A stretch of 42,935 nucleotides of DNA. Source: a virus (taxonomy: Duplodnaviria; Heunggongvirae; Uroviricota; Caudoviricetes). Below, piece by piece: positions 27,450-38,858 of this stretch. Where the stretch lies: the IMG/VR virus record IMGVR_UViG_2529292907_000021. The stretch is one strand, 5' to 3'. Each line of letters starts with the position of its first letter. Positions within the stretch are counted from its first letter, which is position 1. A program made the translations under genes and the position numbers. Below the pieces are notes generated by a model. That model was not told the DNA's origin, did no database searches, and worked only from the letters and a program-made list of their open reading frames with translations.

Positions 27450-27704
27450 CTAATATTTGTAGCGTTTTTCCGGGAGAAGAGCGTATTCGTAGGTGAAGTT
27501 GAATGCCTCGTTTTCAGTGTTAAATCGGCGTTCTGAGATATCTCTCCAGTGCCCTACCCTGAAATACTTCTGAGCAACCCACTTTCCCTCGAACGGGAAC
27601 ACAGCGTAAGCGCCCACGTACTGATGATCAGCGTGCGGGTCGGGATATGACTCCCCCTCTACCAGAGAGTAAAACTTGATGCCGCTTATAATTATGCAGC
27701 TCAA
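27450..27704 (-). CDS. Hypothetical phage protein (84 aa)
   Basis: ORF abutting the upstream gene stop; no recognisable motif. Confidence 0.35.
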   Translation of the reverse strand: MSCIIISGIKFYSLVEGESYPDPHADHQYVGAYAVFPFEGKWVAQKYFRVGHWRDISERRFNTENEAFNFTYEYALLPEKRYKY

Positions 27705-27947
27705 TTATTTTTTCTCGTTCTGCGCGGCCAGATCCAGATAGCGCGGATCGGACGCTCTTGGCAACGTCATGCTCTGCTCGCGGTAGTTGAAGTATTCACG
27801 AAGATGCTCTGGTTTCTCACGCGCTACCTGCTCATCGATAACAGGCATGTTCATGCGCTCTTTGTACGCTACGCCACTGGCAGCTAGGTCGACGTTAACC
27901 TTGTCCTGCTCTTCTTTCGATTTTGCTGCGATGTTATGACCAGACAT
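27705..27947 (-). CDS. Hypothetical phage protein (80 aa)
   Basis: ORF preceded by an inverted repeat and a TATAAT element; acidic/basic helical character. Confidence 0.35.
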
Positions 27948-33289: not shown

Positions 33290-33829
33290 TCATACAGCCC
33301 CCAGCATCAACTGCACCATCTCCATCAGCGGACCGGTTAAGCCAGGGTCAACGCGGTACATCTCCACGATCCCCTCGCTCAGCTCTTTCAGCTTCTGATG
33401 ACGCGGCGCATCCATTGCGACAGCTATCTTCGCTTCGCTGGTTTCCTTCTCCATACGTGCCAGACGGGCCATGACGTTGTCTTCTGGCAGCAGGCGACTG
33501 CGGTACACAATCGGCAGAACGGCGAGGATTGCAGGAGTCAGCTGGCGGACGTTCTCGCGGTAACGTTCGCTGTTGAAATGGTTATCCAGGAAGCGGAAAA
33601 GCTTCTGGCGCTTTCGGCAGAGATCGTCAGGGAAAGTGATGTCATCACCACCCTGTGCCTGGTACTCTTCGATGATCAGAGCCGTAACTACGTCCTGACC
33701 ATCGGCACCAGCCCAGGAGCGGACCGCGTCACGAATATCTTCGTGGCTCGGCCCCCTACGTGCTTGAGCGCGATTTATCATTACCCCTTGAGTAATGTCG
33801 CTATCATTCTGGTAAGTAAGTGTCTGCAT
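33290..33829 (-). CDS. YdaT-like early regulatory protein (Rac-type immunity region)
   Basis: Segments IIEEYQAQGG and QLTPAILAVLPIVYRSRL resemble Rac YdaT as recalled; located immediately after the Cro/YdaS-like gene. Confidence 0.5.
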   Translation of the reverse strand: MQTLTYQNDSDITQGVMINRAQARRGPSHEDIRDAVRSWAGADGQDVVTALIIEEYQAQGGDDITFPDDLCRKRQKLFRFLDNHFNSERYRENVRQLTPAILAVLPIVYRSRLLPEDNVMARLARMEKETSEAKIAVAMDAPRHQKLKELSEGIVEMYRVDPGLTGPLMEMVQLMLGAV

Positions 33830-33840
33830 GGTTAATGCTC

Positions 33841-34050
33841 CTACTTTGGTAAACCGTCAGTGGGATTTGGGTAGAGATCTGGGCGCAGCTCGTGTGGCGT
33901 TACGCCGGTTGCCTCAAACACTGGTAGCACTCGTTCGGCAGGAATTCCTTTACGGCGCCACAGCGAAACAGCCATTTTTGAAACGCCGATCAAAGCTCCA
34001 AGCGCGCTGGCCGAGCCAGATCGGAGAATTGCATTTTCAATACCAGTCAT
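33841..34050 (-). CDS. Cro/YdaS-like HTH regulator
   Basis: 69-aa protein with HTH (SALGALIGVSKMAVSLWRRKGIP) and the ...HELRPDLYP tail typical of the YdaS/Cro-like family; divergent from the repressor gene. Confidence 0.6.
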   Translation of the reverse strand: MTGIENAILRSGSASALGALIGVSKMAVSLWRRKGIPAERVLPVFEATGVTPHELRPDLYPNPTDGLPK

Positions 34051-34147
34051 AGGACCTCCTTAAGTGAGCAAAGTAAAGCACCAATTTACTATTGAGTCAA
34101 TACACGCCTGCCTACCAACTGGTAAAGCTATTGTTTACAATCCCTAC

Positions 34148-34531
34148 ATGAACAAAAAAGATCCTAACCAGAGCCTTATTTCCAGGCTGACTGAATTGAA
34201 TGGCAAAGGCTTCTCAAAAACAGAGATGGCCAAGGTTGCTAATGTCAGTAAGCAGGCGGTAACCGGATGGTTTAGAACCGGTAAAATCAGCAAAGAATCT
34301 GCCCTCGCTGTTGCAGACGCTGCTGGCGTGTCTGTGCCATGGCTACTCGGCGAGGATGTTGGAGAGAAAGACGGCCTTAAGCCGGACGAACAGCGCCTGC
34401 TGGAGCTCTATCGCCAGTTGCCGGAAGAAGAGCAGCAGAACATGCTCCGCATCTTTGCCATTCGCCTGAAAGAGTTGGACGAGTTGTATGAGAAATACAT
34501 GAAGGGGCGTATTCGTTCTCAGGGAGAGTGA
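34148..34531 (+). CDS. DicA/RacR-like prophage repressor (HTH, no peptidase domain); start chosen at internal ATG
   Basis: HTH LISRLTELNGKGFSKTEMAKVANVSKQAVTGW and a C-terminal region (LKPDEQRLLELYRQLPEEEQQNMLRIFAIRLKEL) resembling DicA as recalled; the internal start leaves a ~97-bp divergent control region with the cro-like gene. Confidence 0.6.
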   Translation: MNKKDPNQSLISRLTELNGKGFSKTEMAKVANVSKQAVTGWFRTGKISKESALAVADAAGVSVPWLLGEDVGEKDGLKPDEQRLLELYRQLPEEEQQNMLRIFAIRLKELDELYEKYMKGRIRSQGE

Positions 34532-34700
34532 TGTGTTCTGGTCGGAGAATGGCTGGTAGTGAACGGCGTGGCATTGCGCCAAGGCAATTAATTCAACCTC
34601 TTAGTCGCCATATCCCATAAAGGATTCCGGCTAAATTTGTTACCGATACTACCAATGCAATTGTGGCAAAAATATCTGAACCGGACATAAGGAAATCTCC

Positions 34701-35132
34701 ATGAGTTATAGCGACATTGTTGCAACTATTGCAATGATTGTATCTATCACTGCTGTTCCTGCAAGTGGTTATTTAAGCTATCGTTACGCAATTGAGGGAG
34801 AAAAGAGGAAGGAGTGGAATGGTGTTGTTGAGCCAATTCTTGAGTATTTAGAGGGGCATGAACTATTTCTAAGCAAAAAGAAATGCCCTGATTATACTTT
34901 CCACAGCTTTCCATCAAAAAACTGGGATGCAGCGATTAGAAGATCTAAAGATCCAAAAAAATACCAACAAGCGCTTCAAGATTACCGGTCAGTATTGAAT
35001 GAAATAAAAACATCTCCGGCACCAGTTATTTATTTTGGGCAATCTGAGTCTGAGCGCGAGGAGTGGATTGACCGATACCCTGACGGGATAAACAGGCTTA
35101 ATGAACTAATGACAATTCTAGCGTTGAAATAA
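34701..35132 (+). CDS. Membrane-anchored protein in the sieB/rex position downstream of the repressor (candidate superinfection exclusion or abortive infection protein)
   Basis: 143 aa, N-terminal TM helix (IVATIAMIVSITAVPASGYL); AAGGAAAT RBS; AT-rich; followed by a strong terminator. Confidence 0.45.
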   Translation: MSYSDIVATIAMIVSITAVPASGYLSYRYAIEGEKRKEWNGVVEPILEYLEGHELFLSKKKCPDYTFHSFPSKNWDAAIRRSKDPKKYQQALQDYRSVLNEIKTSPAPVIYFGQSESEREEWIDRYPDGINRLNELMTILALK

Positions 35133-35158
35133 CCCGGCCACCGAGCCGGGTTTTTTAT
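35131..35158 (+). terminator. Strong intrinsic terminator
   Basis: Hairpin CCCGGC-CACCGA-GCCGGG followed by TTTTTTAT. Confidence 0.7.
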
Positions 35159-35579
35159 ACCCCCCACCGGATCGCCTCCAAGCGTCTGCCCCGAACTCCC
35201 CAATCCCGGCCTTAGCGTCGGGATTTTTTTTGTCTTCTATTGCTCAATTTCATACTCCAAAACAATCAGGTAAAGCATTGCTGTACTTTTTATCACCTCA
35301 TTGCTTGACCATTTAGTAAAGTGGTGATTTACTAGTATCACCAAGACGCACCACGAACCACTCAGGCAGGACGCCCACGAAGTAGCCGCCGACGGCATAT
35401 GAATAGTCGGATGAGGTGGTTAGATTAACGCGCATCAGGTTTAACGCTCAGCTGGCCGGCTATAAGGCAAAACAGAAGTGAGCTTCGCGGTGGTGAACTG
35501 CAGAGTTAAATCGCTCAACTGTGAAGATCAGCACCACGGCACCACCAGCGAAGTTCACTCAGCAATAGTGGAGAACATC

Positions 35580-35786
35580 ATGGTTCATCAGCACTACGGT
35601 ACACAGACGGTAAACCGCGGCGCGGTTCAGCCTGGAATGCTCGTCAAACACAAGGATTCAACCTGGACGGCATCAGCTAATGCTCGTGGTCGTTTGTATC
35701 TGCATCGCGGCGTTGAGATGACTTACACCAGGGATTTGCTGGTTGAAGTTTATCTGAACGGTCTGGGGAATGGCCTCAGCCATTAA
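35580..35786 (+). CDS. Small hypothetical early-left protein (68 aa; KilR-like position)
   Basis: Internal ATG with GGAG RBS 7 nt upstream; the longer GTG-initiated ORF (35478) lacks an RBS. Confidence 0.3.
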   Translation: MVHQHYGTQTVNRGAVQPGMLVKHKDSTWTASANARGRLYLHRGVEMTYTRDLLVEVYLNGLGNGLSH

Positions 35787-35797
35787 CGGAGAGTGTC

Positions 35798-35959
35798 ATG
35801 CAAGACAAGAAATGCGGTTACTGCAGCAAGCCGGTTAAACCGGAAGAAGTAATCAAAGGCACCCTTCTCTACCGCAACGGCTCACTGCTGGCGCGCAAAG
35901 AGAAAGAGTACTGTTCCAGACGTTGCGCTTCGCACGACCAGATGGCTCACGAAGGCTAA
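35798..35959 (+). CDS. Small zinc-ribbon-like protein (53 aa; YdaE-like position)
   Basis: MQDKKCGYCSKPV...EYCSRRCASHDQ has CxxC...CxxxC spacing; GGAG RBS; below the ORF track length threshold. Confidence 0.35.
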   Translation: MQDKKCGYCSKPVKPEEVIKGTLLYRNGSLLARKEKEYCSRRCASHDQMAHEG

Positions 35960-36098
35960 CGTACACCCCGCGCAAGGCGGGATCTACGTCCGGTGGCACC
36001 GACCAAAGTTACACCGGAAACAACATCAAAACCAAAGTTAACCCAATGGGCGCTATCAATGGCCCGGGGATTCTAACACCCAAAAATGAGGATCTCAC

Positions 36099-38858
36099 AT
36101 GGAATTCTTTAATGTGGTTAAAGCCACTCAGAAATCCGGAAAACAAGATGCAGTGGTCTGGTTCACTGCGAAAACCGAGGCTCGCGCCAACCTGCAACTG
36201 GACGTTGCACTGGAAGATGCTGGCATCGAAATGGGTCGCGGTAAGGACTACGCCAAACCGATTCGCACAGATTTTCCTGTTGTTGATGACCTGCCAGAAG
36301 AAGGCGAAGTTGATTTCACATGGTGCGAACGTTACGAACTGGCCGAAGACCAGCGCACCTGGAATGTTAAGCAACAGGCTGAAGATGAGTCTGTCGACGA
36401 CGCCGATACTGAAGACAGCACCGCAGAAGAATCTCAGCAGTCAGAGCAGCCGAACCTGATCGTCGTTGCCACCCTGCCATTCCGTCAGCGCGTACTGGCT
36501 CAGTTCATCGGTGATGGTGAATATCTCTATCACGTCGACGCTGGGCAGAAAAACGAGATTGTCCGCCTTGAGATGGACACTGATAACGCGTACGCCCAAA
36601 ACCTGCTGCTGGCTGCTGAGAATGTGGAAGCATTCAAAAAAGCCATTGAGCACGATATCCATAAAGTCGTGAATGCCGTTAAGAAAGCCTTCCCTGTCGA
36701 CGGTAAAAAACCGGAACTGGCAACAGTTATCCAGTTCCTGACGGTGTGGTTCAACACTGATTACATCGACCGTGGCATCCTGGCGCGCGAATGGACCGCC
36801 GGTAACCGCATCAGCAATGTTCAGCGCACCGATTCCGGTACCAACGCCGACGGCGGATATGTCACTGACCGTGGCGAAAATGCTTACCACACGCTGGATA
36901 CTCTGGATTTAGAGATTGCCTGCGCCCTGCTCCCAATGGACTTTAACCATCTTGAAATCCTGGGCAGCATCCACCGCCGCGCCAAAGAGATAGTGGCCAA
37001 CAAAGAACAACCATGGAAATCATGGAGCAGCATCCTGCGCAATCAGCCTGGCGTTCTGTCGGTAAACCGCGCTGCCATCTTCAATCTGGTGCGCATCGCG
37101 CCGGAAAATATTCACCTGACGCCAGTTGCACATCTGGAGTTCGTTAACCAGACCATGACAGCTGAGTTCAATTCAGCAACTGAGTTGCTGCCGTTGCCAG
37201 TAGCTGGCGCGCAGGAACCAAACAGTCAGGATCAACCTCGAGTTGAGAATCTTGGCGCTGGAATTTTCTCCATAGAAAGCCTGATGGGTGATCAACAACC
37301 AAAAACAGATGACCGTTCACCACTTAATGAGGAAACCACCAGCGATGTGCAGATGGAAGAAACTGTCAGTGATGAAGAACAGGCTGGTAATGAAGTGCAG
37401 CCAGGCGAAAGCAGTCTGGAAACTGGTGAAGAGTCACATACCGGCCAGCAAGCCGATGTAAACCAGAATGCGGACTCTGTCGTCCAAAATAGCGATTCTG
37501 TAAACCAAGCCGAACCAGTTGCTGCGCAAACCGAGCCAGAAGCGAAATCTGACGAACCGGCTGTTGTGTATCCCGCTTACTTCGAGCCTGGGCGCTATGA
37601 AGGTCTGCCGAACGAGGTTTATCACGCAGCGAACGGGATCAGCAGCACGCAGGTAAAAGATGCCCGCGTCAGCCTGATGTACTTCAACGCACGCCACGTC
37701 GCCAAAACGATCACCAAAGAGCGTTCTCCAGTTCTGGACATGGGTAACCTGGTGCATGGACTGGCGTTGCAGCCAGAGCAGCTTGATGAAGAGTTCAGCG
37801 TTGAACCGATGATCCCGGAAGGCGCGTTCACCACGACGGCAACAATCCGCGCGTTTATCGATGAGTACAACGCAGGTCTGCCAGAGCAATTGAGCGCCGA
37901 CGACATAAAGACATTGCTCGAGGAATACAACGCCACTCTGCCTGCTCAGGTACCACTGGGTGGTTCAGTCGAGGAAACTGGCCAGAGCTACATGTCGCTG
38001 CCAGAAGAGTACCAGCGGATCGAAGCGGACCAGAAGCAGACCGCAGCGGCGATGAAAGCCTGCATCAAGGAATACAACGCCAATCTGCCTGCCCAGGTGA
38101 AAACCAGTGGTAGCCGTGATGCCTTACTCGAGCAGCTGGCAATCATCAATCCTGACCTGGTGGCGCAGGAAGCGCAGAAACCGCAACCGCTGAAAGTGTC
38201 CGGTACCAAAGCGGATCTGATTCAGACCGTGAAGTCTGTGAAACCAGACGCCGTCTTTGCCGACGAACTGCTGGATGCGTGGCGCGAGAATCCGCAAGGG
38301 AAAGTACTGGTCACCCGCCAGCAACTGAGCACCGCACTGGCCATTCAGAAAGCCCTGCTACAGCACCCAACTGCCGGGATGCTGCTTCAGTACCCGAGTC
38401 GCGCCGTTGAGGTCAGCTATTTTGGCTTTGACGATGAAACCGGTCTGGAAGTCCGCGTTCGTCCAGACCTTGAGATCGACCTGGACGGAGTGCGCATCGG
38501 TGCCGACCTGAAAACCATCAGCATGTGGAACATTAAGCAGGAAGGCCTGCGCGCCAAGCTGCACCGGGAAATCATCGACCGTGACTACCATCTGAGCGCC
38601 GCCATGTATTGCGAGACCGCAGCACTGGACCAGTTCTTCTGGATTTTCGTCAACAAGGACGAGAACTACCACTGGATCGCCATCATCGAGGCATCCGCCG
38701 AACTGCTGGAGCTGGGCATGCTTGAGTACCGCAAATCAATGCGTGCTATCGCTACCGGCTTTGACACTGGCGAATGGCCAGCGCCCATCACAGCTGATTA
38801 TACCGACGAACTGAACGACTTCGACCTGCGCCGCCTTGAAGCGCTGCGTCTGGCTTAA
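36099..38858 (+). CDS. RecE-like exonuclease VIII (long acidic N-terminal region plus C-terminal PD-(D/E)xK nuclease domain)
   Basis: 919 aa; C-terminal ~300 aa contain a PD-(D/E)xK-like arrangement (...RPDLEIDLDG...GADLKT...); immediately upstream of a RecT-family gene, as in Rac recE-recT. Confidence 0.55.
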   Translation: MEFFNVVKATQKSGKQDAVVWFTAKTEARANLQLDVALEDAGIEMGRGKDYAKPIRTDFPVVDDLPEEGEVDFTWCERYELAEDQRTWNVKQQAEDESVDDADTEDSTAEESQQSEQPNLIVVATLPFRQRVLAQFIGDGEYLYHVDAGQKNEIVRLEMDTDNAYAQNLLLAAENVEAFKKAIEHDIHKVVNAVKKAFPVDGKKPELATVIQFLTVWFNTDYIDRGILAREWTAGNRISNVQRTDSGTNADGGYVTDRGENAYHTLDTLDLEIACALLPMDFNHLEILGSIHRRAKEIVANKEQPWKSWSSILRNQPGVLSVNRAAIFNLVRIAPENIHLTPVAHLEFVNQTMTAEFNSATELLPLPVAGAQEPNSQDQPRVENLGAGIFSIESLMGDQQPKTDDRSPLNEETTSDVQMEETVSDEEQAGNEVQPGESSLETGEESHTGQQADVNQNADSVVQNSDSVNQAEPVAAQTEPEAKSDEPAVVYPAYFEPGRYEGLPNEVYHAANGISSTQVKDARVSLMYFNARHVAKTITKERSPVLDMGNLVHGLALQPEQLDEEFSVEPMIPEGAFTTTATIRAFIDEYNAGLPEQLSADDIKTLLEEYNATLPAQVPLGGSVEETGQSYMSLPEEYQRIEADQKQTAAAMKACIKEYNANLPAQVKTSGSRDALLEQLAIINPDLVAQEAQKPQPLKVSGTKADLIQTVKSVKPDAVFADELLDAWRENPQGKVLVTRQQLSTALAIQKALLQHPTAGMLLQYPSRAVEVSYFGFDDETGLEVRVRPDLEIDLDGVRIGADLKTISMWNIKQEGLRAKLHREIIDRDYHLSAAMYCETAALDQFFWIFVNKDENYHWIAIIEASAELLELGMLEYRKSMRAIATGFDTGEWPAPITADYTDELNDFDLRRLEALRLA

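Follow-up and report, generated by a model that had tools for sequence, protein, structure and literature searches.

The immunity region of a Rac-like lambdoid prophage, present in the viral sequence IMGVR_UViG_2529292907_000021 (Caudoviricetes; the whole 42,935-nucleotide [nt] stretch is referred to here as the window), contains a cassette at positions 34593 to 35156 that is best explained as a two-gene membrane moron. One gene encodes a 143-amino-acid (aa) membrane protein. The other, which lies head to head with it on the opposite strand, encodes a 31-aa peptide that, judging from the residues that the two share, is a paralog of the larger protein's own membrane helix. A first-pass annotation of the window had described a single gene at this site and missed both the divergent partner and a nucleotide-level element embedded in the 5' end of the larger open reading frame (ORF). 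Our general reading, which we favor tentatively and would not place at even chances, is that the cassette may be an anti-phage module expressed from the immunity region in the manner of Rex or SieB. Its components are as follows.

34593 to 34688 (stop codon included), minus strand: the small gene, unannotated, encoding the 31-aa membrane peptide MSGSDIFATIALVVSVTNLAGILYGIWRLRG, head to head with the big gene.
34689 to 34700, unstranded: a 12-nt spacer, AAGGAAATCTCC, holding both ribosome-binding sites, AAGGA for the plus-strand gene and GGAG for the minus-strand gene.
34701 to 35132, plus strand: the big gene, an ATG-started ORF encoding the 143-aa protein.
35133 to 35156, plus strand: an intrinsic terminator, CCCGGC-CACCGA-GCCGGG followed by T6, directly after the stop codon of the big gene.

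The small gene is protein coding and is under strong purifying selection. An ORF of 31 to 37 aa occupies the same head-to-head position in nearly all of the 78 loci that we collected, across all sequence types of the family and with GTG start codons in some. The gap between the start codons of the two genes, 12 nt in the window, is 11 or 12 nt in most loci. Among 37 distinct alleles of the small gene (84 pairwise comparisons), the median synonymous divergence (pS) is 0.64 versus a median nonsynonymous divergence (pN) of 0.115, and the differences at codon positions 1, 2, and 3 are in the ratio 507:198:1136. Residues A11, L12, and N18 of the peptide are invariant and its C-terminal end is basic; the fourfold-degenerate sites of the gene are fully free. 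The best Kyte-Doolittle window of the peptide scores 2.11. Exact look-up of the peptide showed it to be either absent or labeled "hypothetical," and it is usually unannotated in the collected loci. Divergent small hydrophobic ORFs are also present in loci L081, L086, and L089; in L086 (3473 to 3530), the head-to-head ORFs may overlap by 30 nt, such that the first ten codons of the big gene (MIEEFNKFLH) are read as MQELIEFLNH on the opposite strand.

In the window, the helices of the two proteins (MSGSDIFATIALVVSVT versus MSYSDIVATIAMIVSIT) share 13 identical residues, as opposed to 4.4 on average and at most 9 in shuffled sequences. The same paralogy is apparent in a remote, AT-rich locus (L083), where INDFITEN is matched by INNFIAEN. 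In 152 of 216 cases, the residues that are identical in the two helices are specified by different codons, indicating that the similarity is kept at the protein level and leading us to reject recent gene conversion between the helices.

The big gene is preceded by an AAGGAA ribosome-binding site 7 nt upstream of its ATG, and its G+C content is 39.4%, compared with 51.8% in the window as a whole and 50.5% in the repressor gene. Its product contains a single hydrophobic stretch at about residues 5 to 25 (best 19-residue Kyte-Doolittle window, 1.76, starting at residue 6), followed by the basic motif RYAIEGEKRKEWN. A conserved juxtamembrane motif, YRYAIxGEKRKEWN, leads into a variable, helical C-terminal domain, and residues 46 to 143 are balanced in charge (15 lysines plus arginines versus 15 aspartates plus glutamates). 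Under the positive-inside rule, this distribution of charge predicts that the N terminus faces out and the C terminus faces in. The AlphaFold2 model (predicted local distance difference test score, 82.5) has a long helix from residue 3 to residue 58 that extends from the membrane into a helical bundle, with a cytoplasmic domain of about 100 aa and four helices. What the first-pass annotation had described of this gene is all present: it is an AT-rich, 143-aa ORF with one N-terminal transmembrane helix and a charged remainder, it is followed by a strong terminator (the hairpin and T6 tract at 35133 to 35156), and it lies behind a co-oriented, DicA-like repressor. The annotation had also found no motif that it could name, and neither did our searches with the protein or its aligned relatives, as detailed below.

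The protein belongs to a widespread family that had previously been catalogued only as a PHROG of unknown function: it matches phrog_34525 of PHROGs v4 over its full length (residues 1 to 143; E value, 3.1e-97). A large protein database contains 58 close relatives, all named hypothetical, that originate from E. coli, Salmonella, Klebsiella, Citrobacter, Serratia, Yersinia, Pluralibacter, and other sources. A profile search of 1.8 billion representative sequences recovered 207 clusters (50% identity) at E values of 1e-3 or less, nearly all of them 120 to 155 aa in length.

Constraint is unevenly distributed along the big gene. In the alignment of relatives, the first 45 or so residues are very conserved and comprise the membrane helix, AVPASGY, and GE(K/R)RKE(W/F)N, and the variable helical remainder typically ends in L-K/R. 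Between alleles, the first 42 codons have a pS of 0.5 to 0.7 and a pN of 0.07 to 0.12. In the rest of the gene, pN reaches 0.57 to 0.71 and amino acid identity is 8 to 24%; the C-terminal domain evolves almost freely. Because synonymous divergence is high within the N-terminal core, its conservation reflects selection and not recent exchange, and mosaic recombination is rejected as the sole cause. The same values dispose of the suspicion, raised by the AT-rich region and by annotations that never go beyond "hypothetical," that these are chance ORFs or decaying remnants. Both ORFs are under strong purifying selection at saturated synonymous divergence, the family is conserved and its fold is confidently modeled, and the spacer, ribosome-binding sites, and terminator are all conserved as well. 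With the pN/pS ratios of the small gene and of the big-gene N terminus refuting it, this explanation retains a negligible probability.

No Pfam-A family, including SieB (PF14163), was matched by either the 143-aa protein or the 31-aa peptide (hmmscan, E value of 1 or less), and the 27 aligned relatives of the larger protein likewise yielded no Pfam match, SieB included. Neither protein matched an NCBIfam model or any of the 5,027 models of PADLOC-DB v2.0. A profile search of Protein Data Bank sequences with the big-protein family returned only de novo four-helix bundles (E values of 0.003 or greater), and a Foldseek comparison of the AlphaFold2 model with viral structures returned unnamed matches with a best E value of 0.009. 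DNA searches detected a homolog in only one of the deposited phages, Klebsiella phage ST846-OXA48phi9.2, in which it is annotated as hypothetical, and in none of 5,426 complete E. coli genomes, in which only the 3' half of the repressor gene was matched. The literature that we searched contained nothing on the protein family and its gene layout, nor on the partner gene, the helix paralogy, the antisense head-to-head arrangement, or the family-wide linkage to repressors.

The topology of the larger protein and the results of these searches bear on one alternative, superinfection exclusion at entry, according to which the membrane protein, with or without the peptide, would block translocation of DNA across the inner membrane without killing the cell. 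SieA, gp15, and Sie2009 are cited as injection blockers of this sort (PMC10883804). A small inner-membrane protein of the immunity region would be at home among Sie2009-type genes, its cytoplasmic side might bind ejection proteins or an entry transporter of the host, and its variable domain fits phage-specific targets. However, only about 4 of its residues are predicted to be periplasmic, it has no similarity to P22 SieA, HK97 gp15, Sie2009, or T4 Imm (the PHROG matches being of unknown function only), and a block at entry would leave the paralogous peptide and the antisense layout unexplained. We consider this alternative improbable.

With both ribosome-binding sites in the 12-nt spacer, each predicted mRNA must begin inside the other gene, and the 5' ends of the two would be complementary over both translation starts. 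The N-terminal region of the big gene is, moreover, constrained at the nucleotide level over the following stretch.

34719 to 34766, minus strand: a promoter-like element for the small gene, lying in codons 7 to 22 of the big gene and marked by frozen synonymous sites.

This element comprises a -35 hexamer, TTGCAG (34764 to 34759), a 16-nt spacer, and a -10 hexamer, TACAAT (34742 to 34737), placing the predicted start of the small-gene transcript near 34730, about 42 nt before the small ATG and upstream of its ribosome-binding site. Frozen codons include V14 (GTA in 90%), P20 (CCT in 93%), A21 (GCA in 90%), A8 (GCA in 85%), and V19 (GTT in 88%), and the share of GCA at the frozen alanine codons in this stretch is 79 to 90%. 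In codons 30 to 42, all synonyms are used and the entropy at fourfold-degenerate sites is about 1.9 bits. The median promoter-like score is 8.5 in the stretch of codons 7 to 22 versus 6 to 7 in control windows of the same genes (Mann-Whitney test, P = 4e-11), although this P value overstates the evidence because the loci are related and not independent. In the reciprocal region, namely the small ORF read in the plus-strand direction, no synonymous sites are frozen and promoter scores are not high (P = 0.05).

A palindrome, TTGCAA-CTA-TTGCAA, is also present here, at 34720 to 34734. Type C loci lack it and match the promoter-like element poorly, but they carry TGcTATAAT 12 nt closer to the small gene. 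The absence of the palindrome from these loci disfavors its interpretation as a hairpin or operator and, together with the perfect TGcTATAAT at the corresponding place, makes a promoter the preferred interpretation. In our reading of these sequences, the small gene probably carries its own predicted promoter inside the big gene, and the big gene mostly relies on transcription from upstream, i.e., from the repressor promoter (PRM).

The minus-strand RNA from 34560 to 34740 folds better than shuffled sequences (z = -2.66), with a long-range pairing between GUCGCUAUAACUCAUGGAG, at the ribosome-binding site of the small gene, and CUUUAUGGGAUAUGGCGAC, near the 3' end of the peptide-coding sequence. 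By eye, this 5'-3' pairing persists for the most part in L001, a close relative, but is not preserved in type C loci, so it was dropped as a general feature. RNAalifold detected no consensus structure over 17 loci, and a search of Rfam (E value of 1 or less) over positions 33500 to 36200 produced chance-level matches only. One of these, an isrB-like match on the minus strand at 35962 to 36057, between ydaE and recE, scores 27 bits (gathering threshold, 35; E value, 0.039) and is probably due to chance. The svsR small RNA, which has been reported from the 3' end of one cI gene (PMC12803456), is a different element.

Several of these features are those of a type I-like toxin module, in which the peptide would be a membrane toxin and the read-through mRNA of the repressor its antisense antitoxin; if PRM fell silent because the prophage was induced, lost, or decaying, the peptide would be made and the cell depolarized. 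With its 31 to 37 aa, one hydrophobic helix, and basic C-terminal end, the peptide matches type I toxins in size and shape (less than 60 aa, hydrophobic, one membrane helix). The genes are head to head, their predicted transcripts would be complementary in the 5' regions across the start codon and the ribosome-binding site, a conserved promoter-like element is present for the small gene alone, and the folding of the minus-strand RNA, with 5'-3' pairing over the ribosome-binding site, resembles that of hok- and tisB-type mRNAs. In one locus (L075), the small gene is intact although the big gene next to it is frameshifted. But the supposed antitoxin side of such a module would be a strongly conserved coding gene (N-terminal pN/pS, about 0.1) in a family of 207 clusters, and the paralogy between the peptide and the big-protein helix points to interplay between proteins. 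Nor is any RNA structure conserved over the 17 loci or any toxin family matched in Rfam, Pfam, or NCBIfam.

The pattern of gene loss also argues against a toxin. Several lineages retain an intact big gene next to a damaged or missing small gene: in L028, L029, and L040, the small gene has lost its start codon, encodes charged residues in the helix, or contains a stop codon; in L018, it is frameshifted; and in L030, L049, and L082, there is no small ORF. Such repeated decay is the reverse of what would be expected if the big gene merely supplied a silencing transcript, and we view a toxin module, although it is the leading rival, as unlikely. That lineages keep the big gene after losing the small gene indicates that the big protein does not kill cells that lack the peptide.

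In many loci, the hairpin CCCGGCCACCGCGCCGGGTTTTT lies 3' of big genes whose C-terminal domains are unrelated in sequence. Its retention behind unrelated domains indicates that the two genes and the terminator form one unit, spanning 34593 to 35156. An A-rich 5' flank could make the terminator at 35133 to 35156 bidirectional. In many Klebsiella-type loci (for example, L001, 5440 to 5643), a convergent minus-strand gene of 67 to 88 aa lies directly behind the big gene; this gene is absent from the window and had no Pfam or PADLOC match.

The cassette is situated in a neighborhood of the type found in Rac-like lambdoid prophages. To one side are the replication gene O and DnaC-like genes, YdaT (cII-like), YdaS (cro-like), and the repressor; to the other are KilR, YdaE, RecE (Exonuc_VIII), RecT, Xis, and Int, adjoining yebY/copD. 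In this arrangement, RacR is the repressor, YdaS the equivalent of Cro, and YdaT that of cII (Jobling 2018; PMC5917428). The features that flank the cassette are listed below.

34073 to 34089 and 34122 to 34138, unstranded: the right operator region, with two GTAAA-N7-TTTAC sites between the cro-like and repressor genes.
34148 to 34531, plus strand: the RacR/DicA-like repressor gene, whose product matches HTH_3, Phage_CI_repr, and, weakly, DicA.
35202 to 35233, plus strand: a second terminator, a 75%-identical copy of the first (repeat family D2).
35270 to 35286 and 35316 to 35332, plus strand: the left operator region, with two GTAAA-N7-T(T/G)TAC sites just 3' of the terminators of the big gene.
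35305 to 35310 (TTGACC) and 35328 to 35333 (TTTACT), separated by 17 nt, plus strand: a PL-like promoter that overlaps the left operator pair and faces kilR, ydaE, recE, and recT.

The operator-like motif GTAAA-N7-TTTAC has four copies only in the 42.9-kb window. Because pairs of operator-like sites bracket the region between the repressor and the left operator and promoter (OL/PL), the big gene sits in the position that rexAB occupies in lambda, co-oriented with the repressor; what it shares with RexAB is this position and not family membership. The first-pass annotation had assigned the gene to a slot for exclusion genes. As regards position, this assignment is upheld by the operators and by the family-wide repressor linkage described below, whereas the exclusion role itself is something that we infer.

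The ORF of the repressor, when delimited mechanically, opens at a GTG at 34064, but homologs (such as a 127-aa protein in L030) open at MNKKDPNQ, which corresponds to the ATG at 34148. The version starting at 34064 would span both sites of the right operator. With TACAAT at 34136 to 34141, the repressor mRNA would be nearly leaderless, as is that of lambda cI from PRM. A 53-aa minus-strand ORF at 35237 to 35398, over the left operators and the PL-like promoter, is unconserved in related loci and is probably spurious.

Linkage to a repressor extends across the family. In about 65 of the 78 loci, the closest gene upstream lies in the same orientation as the family member. Of the 52 distinct upstream proteins, 42 are co-oriented and contain HTH_3, with Peptidase_S24 present too in 30. 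These repressors range from 127-aa RacR-like to 284-aa cI/LexA-like proteins, with mutual identities below 25%. Among remote homologs (E values, 1e-19 to 6e-7), a co-oriented helix-turn-helix (HTH) repressor lies upstream in 4 of 6 loci: L086 and L089 are directly behind cI-S24 genes, L087 is behind a 77-aa HTH gene, and L081 is one gene from cI. The exceptions are beside terminase genes (L007, L057 to L062, and L068), an integrase gene (L049), or a tail-spike gene (L082). In the clade next to terminase (L007, 1649 to 6217; L057 to L062; L068), a 131-aa protein and a 32-aa peptide beginning MSYADFAATLALG lie upstream of an ORF of 532 to 553 aa, so the cassette can also reside elsewhere in a prophage. 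In one viral contig (L047), the gene 5' of the cassette (2478 to 2852) encodes a protein with an EACC1 domain (PF19953, "Effector Associated Constant Component 1"; E value, 3.9e-9), EACC1 being a component of predicted conflict systems.

The contents of the slot vary even behind closely similar repressors. The repressor family of the window also occurs in Rac-like prophages of E. coli, and E. coli relatives that share both this repressor and the KilR/YdaE/RecE flank have other, uncharacterized cargo in the slot: a 467-aa protein in L084 (3762 to 5165) and a 117-aa protein with a fumD-like gene in L085 (3987 to 4340 and 4538 to 4747), neither of which had a Pfam or PADLOC match. The slot behind the repressor, which holds rexAB in lambda and bstA in BTP1, is a recognized hot spot of mosaicism (PMC8585504).

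The linkage and the variability of the C-terminal domain also bear on the possibility that the cassette is a moron directed not at phages but at a host membrane protein (for example, a protease, transporter, or division factor), to the advantage of the lysogen, or at the timing of lysis or of the prophage's own lysis-lysogeny decision. Many small membrane proteins of E. coli act by binding larger membrane proteins, and a membrane anchor joined to a four-helix bundle is a generic adaptor shape. DicB of the Qin prophage is described in one report as altering host membrane proteins (PMC6832061), and the searches of PADLOC revealed no defense homology. A conserved host target, however, fits poorly with the extreme C-terminal divergence among close relatives, and linkage to varied repressors at a position matching that of rexAB and bstA favors conflict between phages. 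We hold such a host-directed role to be improbable as well.

The evidence in favor of the Rex/SieB-like reading is therefore of several kinds: the bracketing by operators, the linkage to repressors, the variability of the slot, selection on the partner gene, the asymmetry of constraint, the combination of a conserved core with a fast-evolving domain, the survival of lineages with the big gene alone, and the modeled long helix leading into a bundle. If the reading is correct, the big protein would be made in the lysogen from read-through of the PRM transcript, which would be antisense to the whole small gene, and would act as a sensor-effector that guards the cell against superinfecting phages. 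Its variable, cytoplasmic four-helix domain would sense or bind a component of the phage or host, and the conserved helix would exert its effect at the inner membrane, through depolarization or a block to entry.

The peptide may then serve as a mimic that pairs with the big-protein helix and gates it, a role for which it appears well suited, since it copies that helix together with a conserved mid-membrane asparagine. Because PRM read-through would be antisense to the small gene and the predicted small-gene promoter would fire head-on into it, the two products would be expected to be expressed reciprocally. As PRM activity falls during the prophage's own induction, the peptide would rise and confer self-immunity, such that the guard would be armed in the lysogen and disarmed, or turned into a killer, at the lytic switch of the prophage. 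We judge this switch in its full form, with an inverted duplicate of the effector helix acting as a free peptide, an antisense layout coupling the peptide-to-effector ratio to how active the repressor promoter is, and a rapidly diversifying cytoplasmic domain deciding which phages are detected, to be doubtful.

Among known systems, lambda RexAB occupies the same slot, behind the repressor and cotranscribed with it, 5' of OL/PL, and likewise has two components, with membrane and cytoplasmic parts. RexB spans the membrane with four helices, and RexA is soluble and 279 aa long. The rex genes are codirectional, whereas the partner gene of the cassette lies on the opposite strand and encodes a 31-aa paralog of the anchor; in addition, the sensor-like domain and the anchor of the cassette reside in one polypeptide. 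No similarity to RexAB was detected in Pfam or PADLOC-DB. RexAB is produced by lysogens, and self-protection has been attributed to surplus RexB, its membrane partner (PMC8585504; PMC11436027).

In their logic, SieB, Esc, and sas of P22 come closest to the pairing of a paralogous mini-protein with an antisense 5' overlap. Ranade and Poteete are said to have found in 1993 that Esc, a shorter polypeptide sharing SieB sequence, gives self-immunity, and that an antisense RNA, sas, arising from within sieB, switches translation between SieB and Esc. The two systems differ in that Esc is an in-frame, internal product of sieB and the peptide of the cassette is a separate, inverted paralog, and in that sieB belongs to the PL operon and the cassette lies behind the repressor; the Pfam model of SieB, as noted, was not matched. 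SieB itself is a membrane-associated abortive-infection protein that is expressed from the prophage and spares P22 (PMC10883804).

The BstA-aba system of BTP1 similarly consists of an abortive-infection gene located directly behind diverse repressors and followed by a terminator (PMC8585504). BstA presumably shares the repressor promoter, and its self-immunity element, aba, lies within the first tens of bases of bstA (PMC8585504), much as codons 7 to 22 of the big gene hold a nucleotide-level element. Unlike the 143-aa protein, to which it is unrelated in sequence, BstA is soluble, has about 300 aa, and localizes to phage DNA; and aba acts as DNA, whereas the element embedded in the cassette resembles a promoter and 5' leader for a coding partner.

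Type I loci such as tisB/istR-1, zorO/orzO, and shoB/ohsC resemble the cassette in having a small hydrophobic peptide with one helix and a divergent partner transcript over the 5' region of the toxin; for ZorO-OrzO, one account describes a divergent 5' overlap (PMC3919570). In these loci, however, the partner is a small noncoding RNA, whereas in the cassette it is the mRNA for a conserved 143-aa protein with a homologous helix. PdpSau (described as a membrane-anchored abortive-infection protein of an S. aureus prophage in PMC10127798), Sie2009, HK97 gp15, and P22 SieA are, like the products of the cassette, single-helix or otherwise small inner-membrane proteins of prophages; they are expressed in the lysogen and protect against other phages, but they are unrelated in sequence, are encoded by single genes, and have no paralogous mini-peptide. 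The cassette does not belong with the holins and antiholins: its site is the immunity region, with the repressor on one side and PL on the other, and it matches no holin family. In kind, it most resembles the exclusion and abortive-infection morons of immunity regions, but it is a member of none of their families, and the function given to it here is wholly inferred.

Genes behind prophage repressors are among the few phage genes that are expressed in every lysogen. Two cases, rexAB and bstA, have been studied deeply; both are abortive-infection systems, and their self-immunity is still poorly understood. The family described here, with its roughly 200 clusters across the Enterobacteriaceae and beyond, fills this slot behind many unrelated repressors. 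Should it prove to protect against phages, it would constitute a compact system of less than 600 base pairs that is easily cloned and has a conserved membrane core and a swappable recognition domain that could be exploited. The peptide would then offer a tractable model for the restraint of a membrane effector by a mimic of its own helix and for how a prophage avoids aborting its own lytic cycle. Screens of the repressor slot that consider single ORFs miss partner micro-genes of this kind.

Elsewhere in the prophage, at about 27704 to 27946 of the window (corresponding to 3004 to 3246 of L078), there is a gene for a DNA_pol3_theta (holE-like) protein, and a second DNA_pol3_theta gene is located in the host flank past the integrase (L078, 19626 to 19856).

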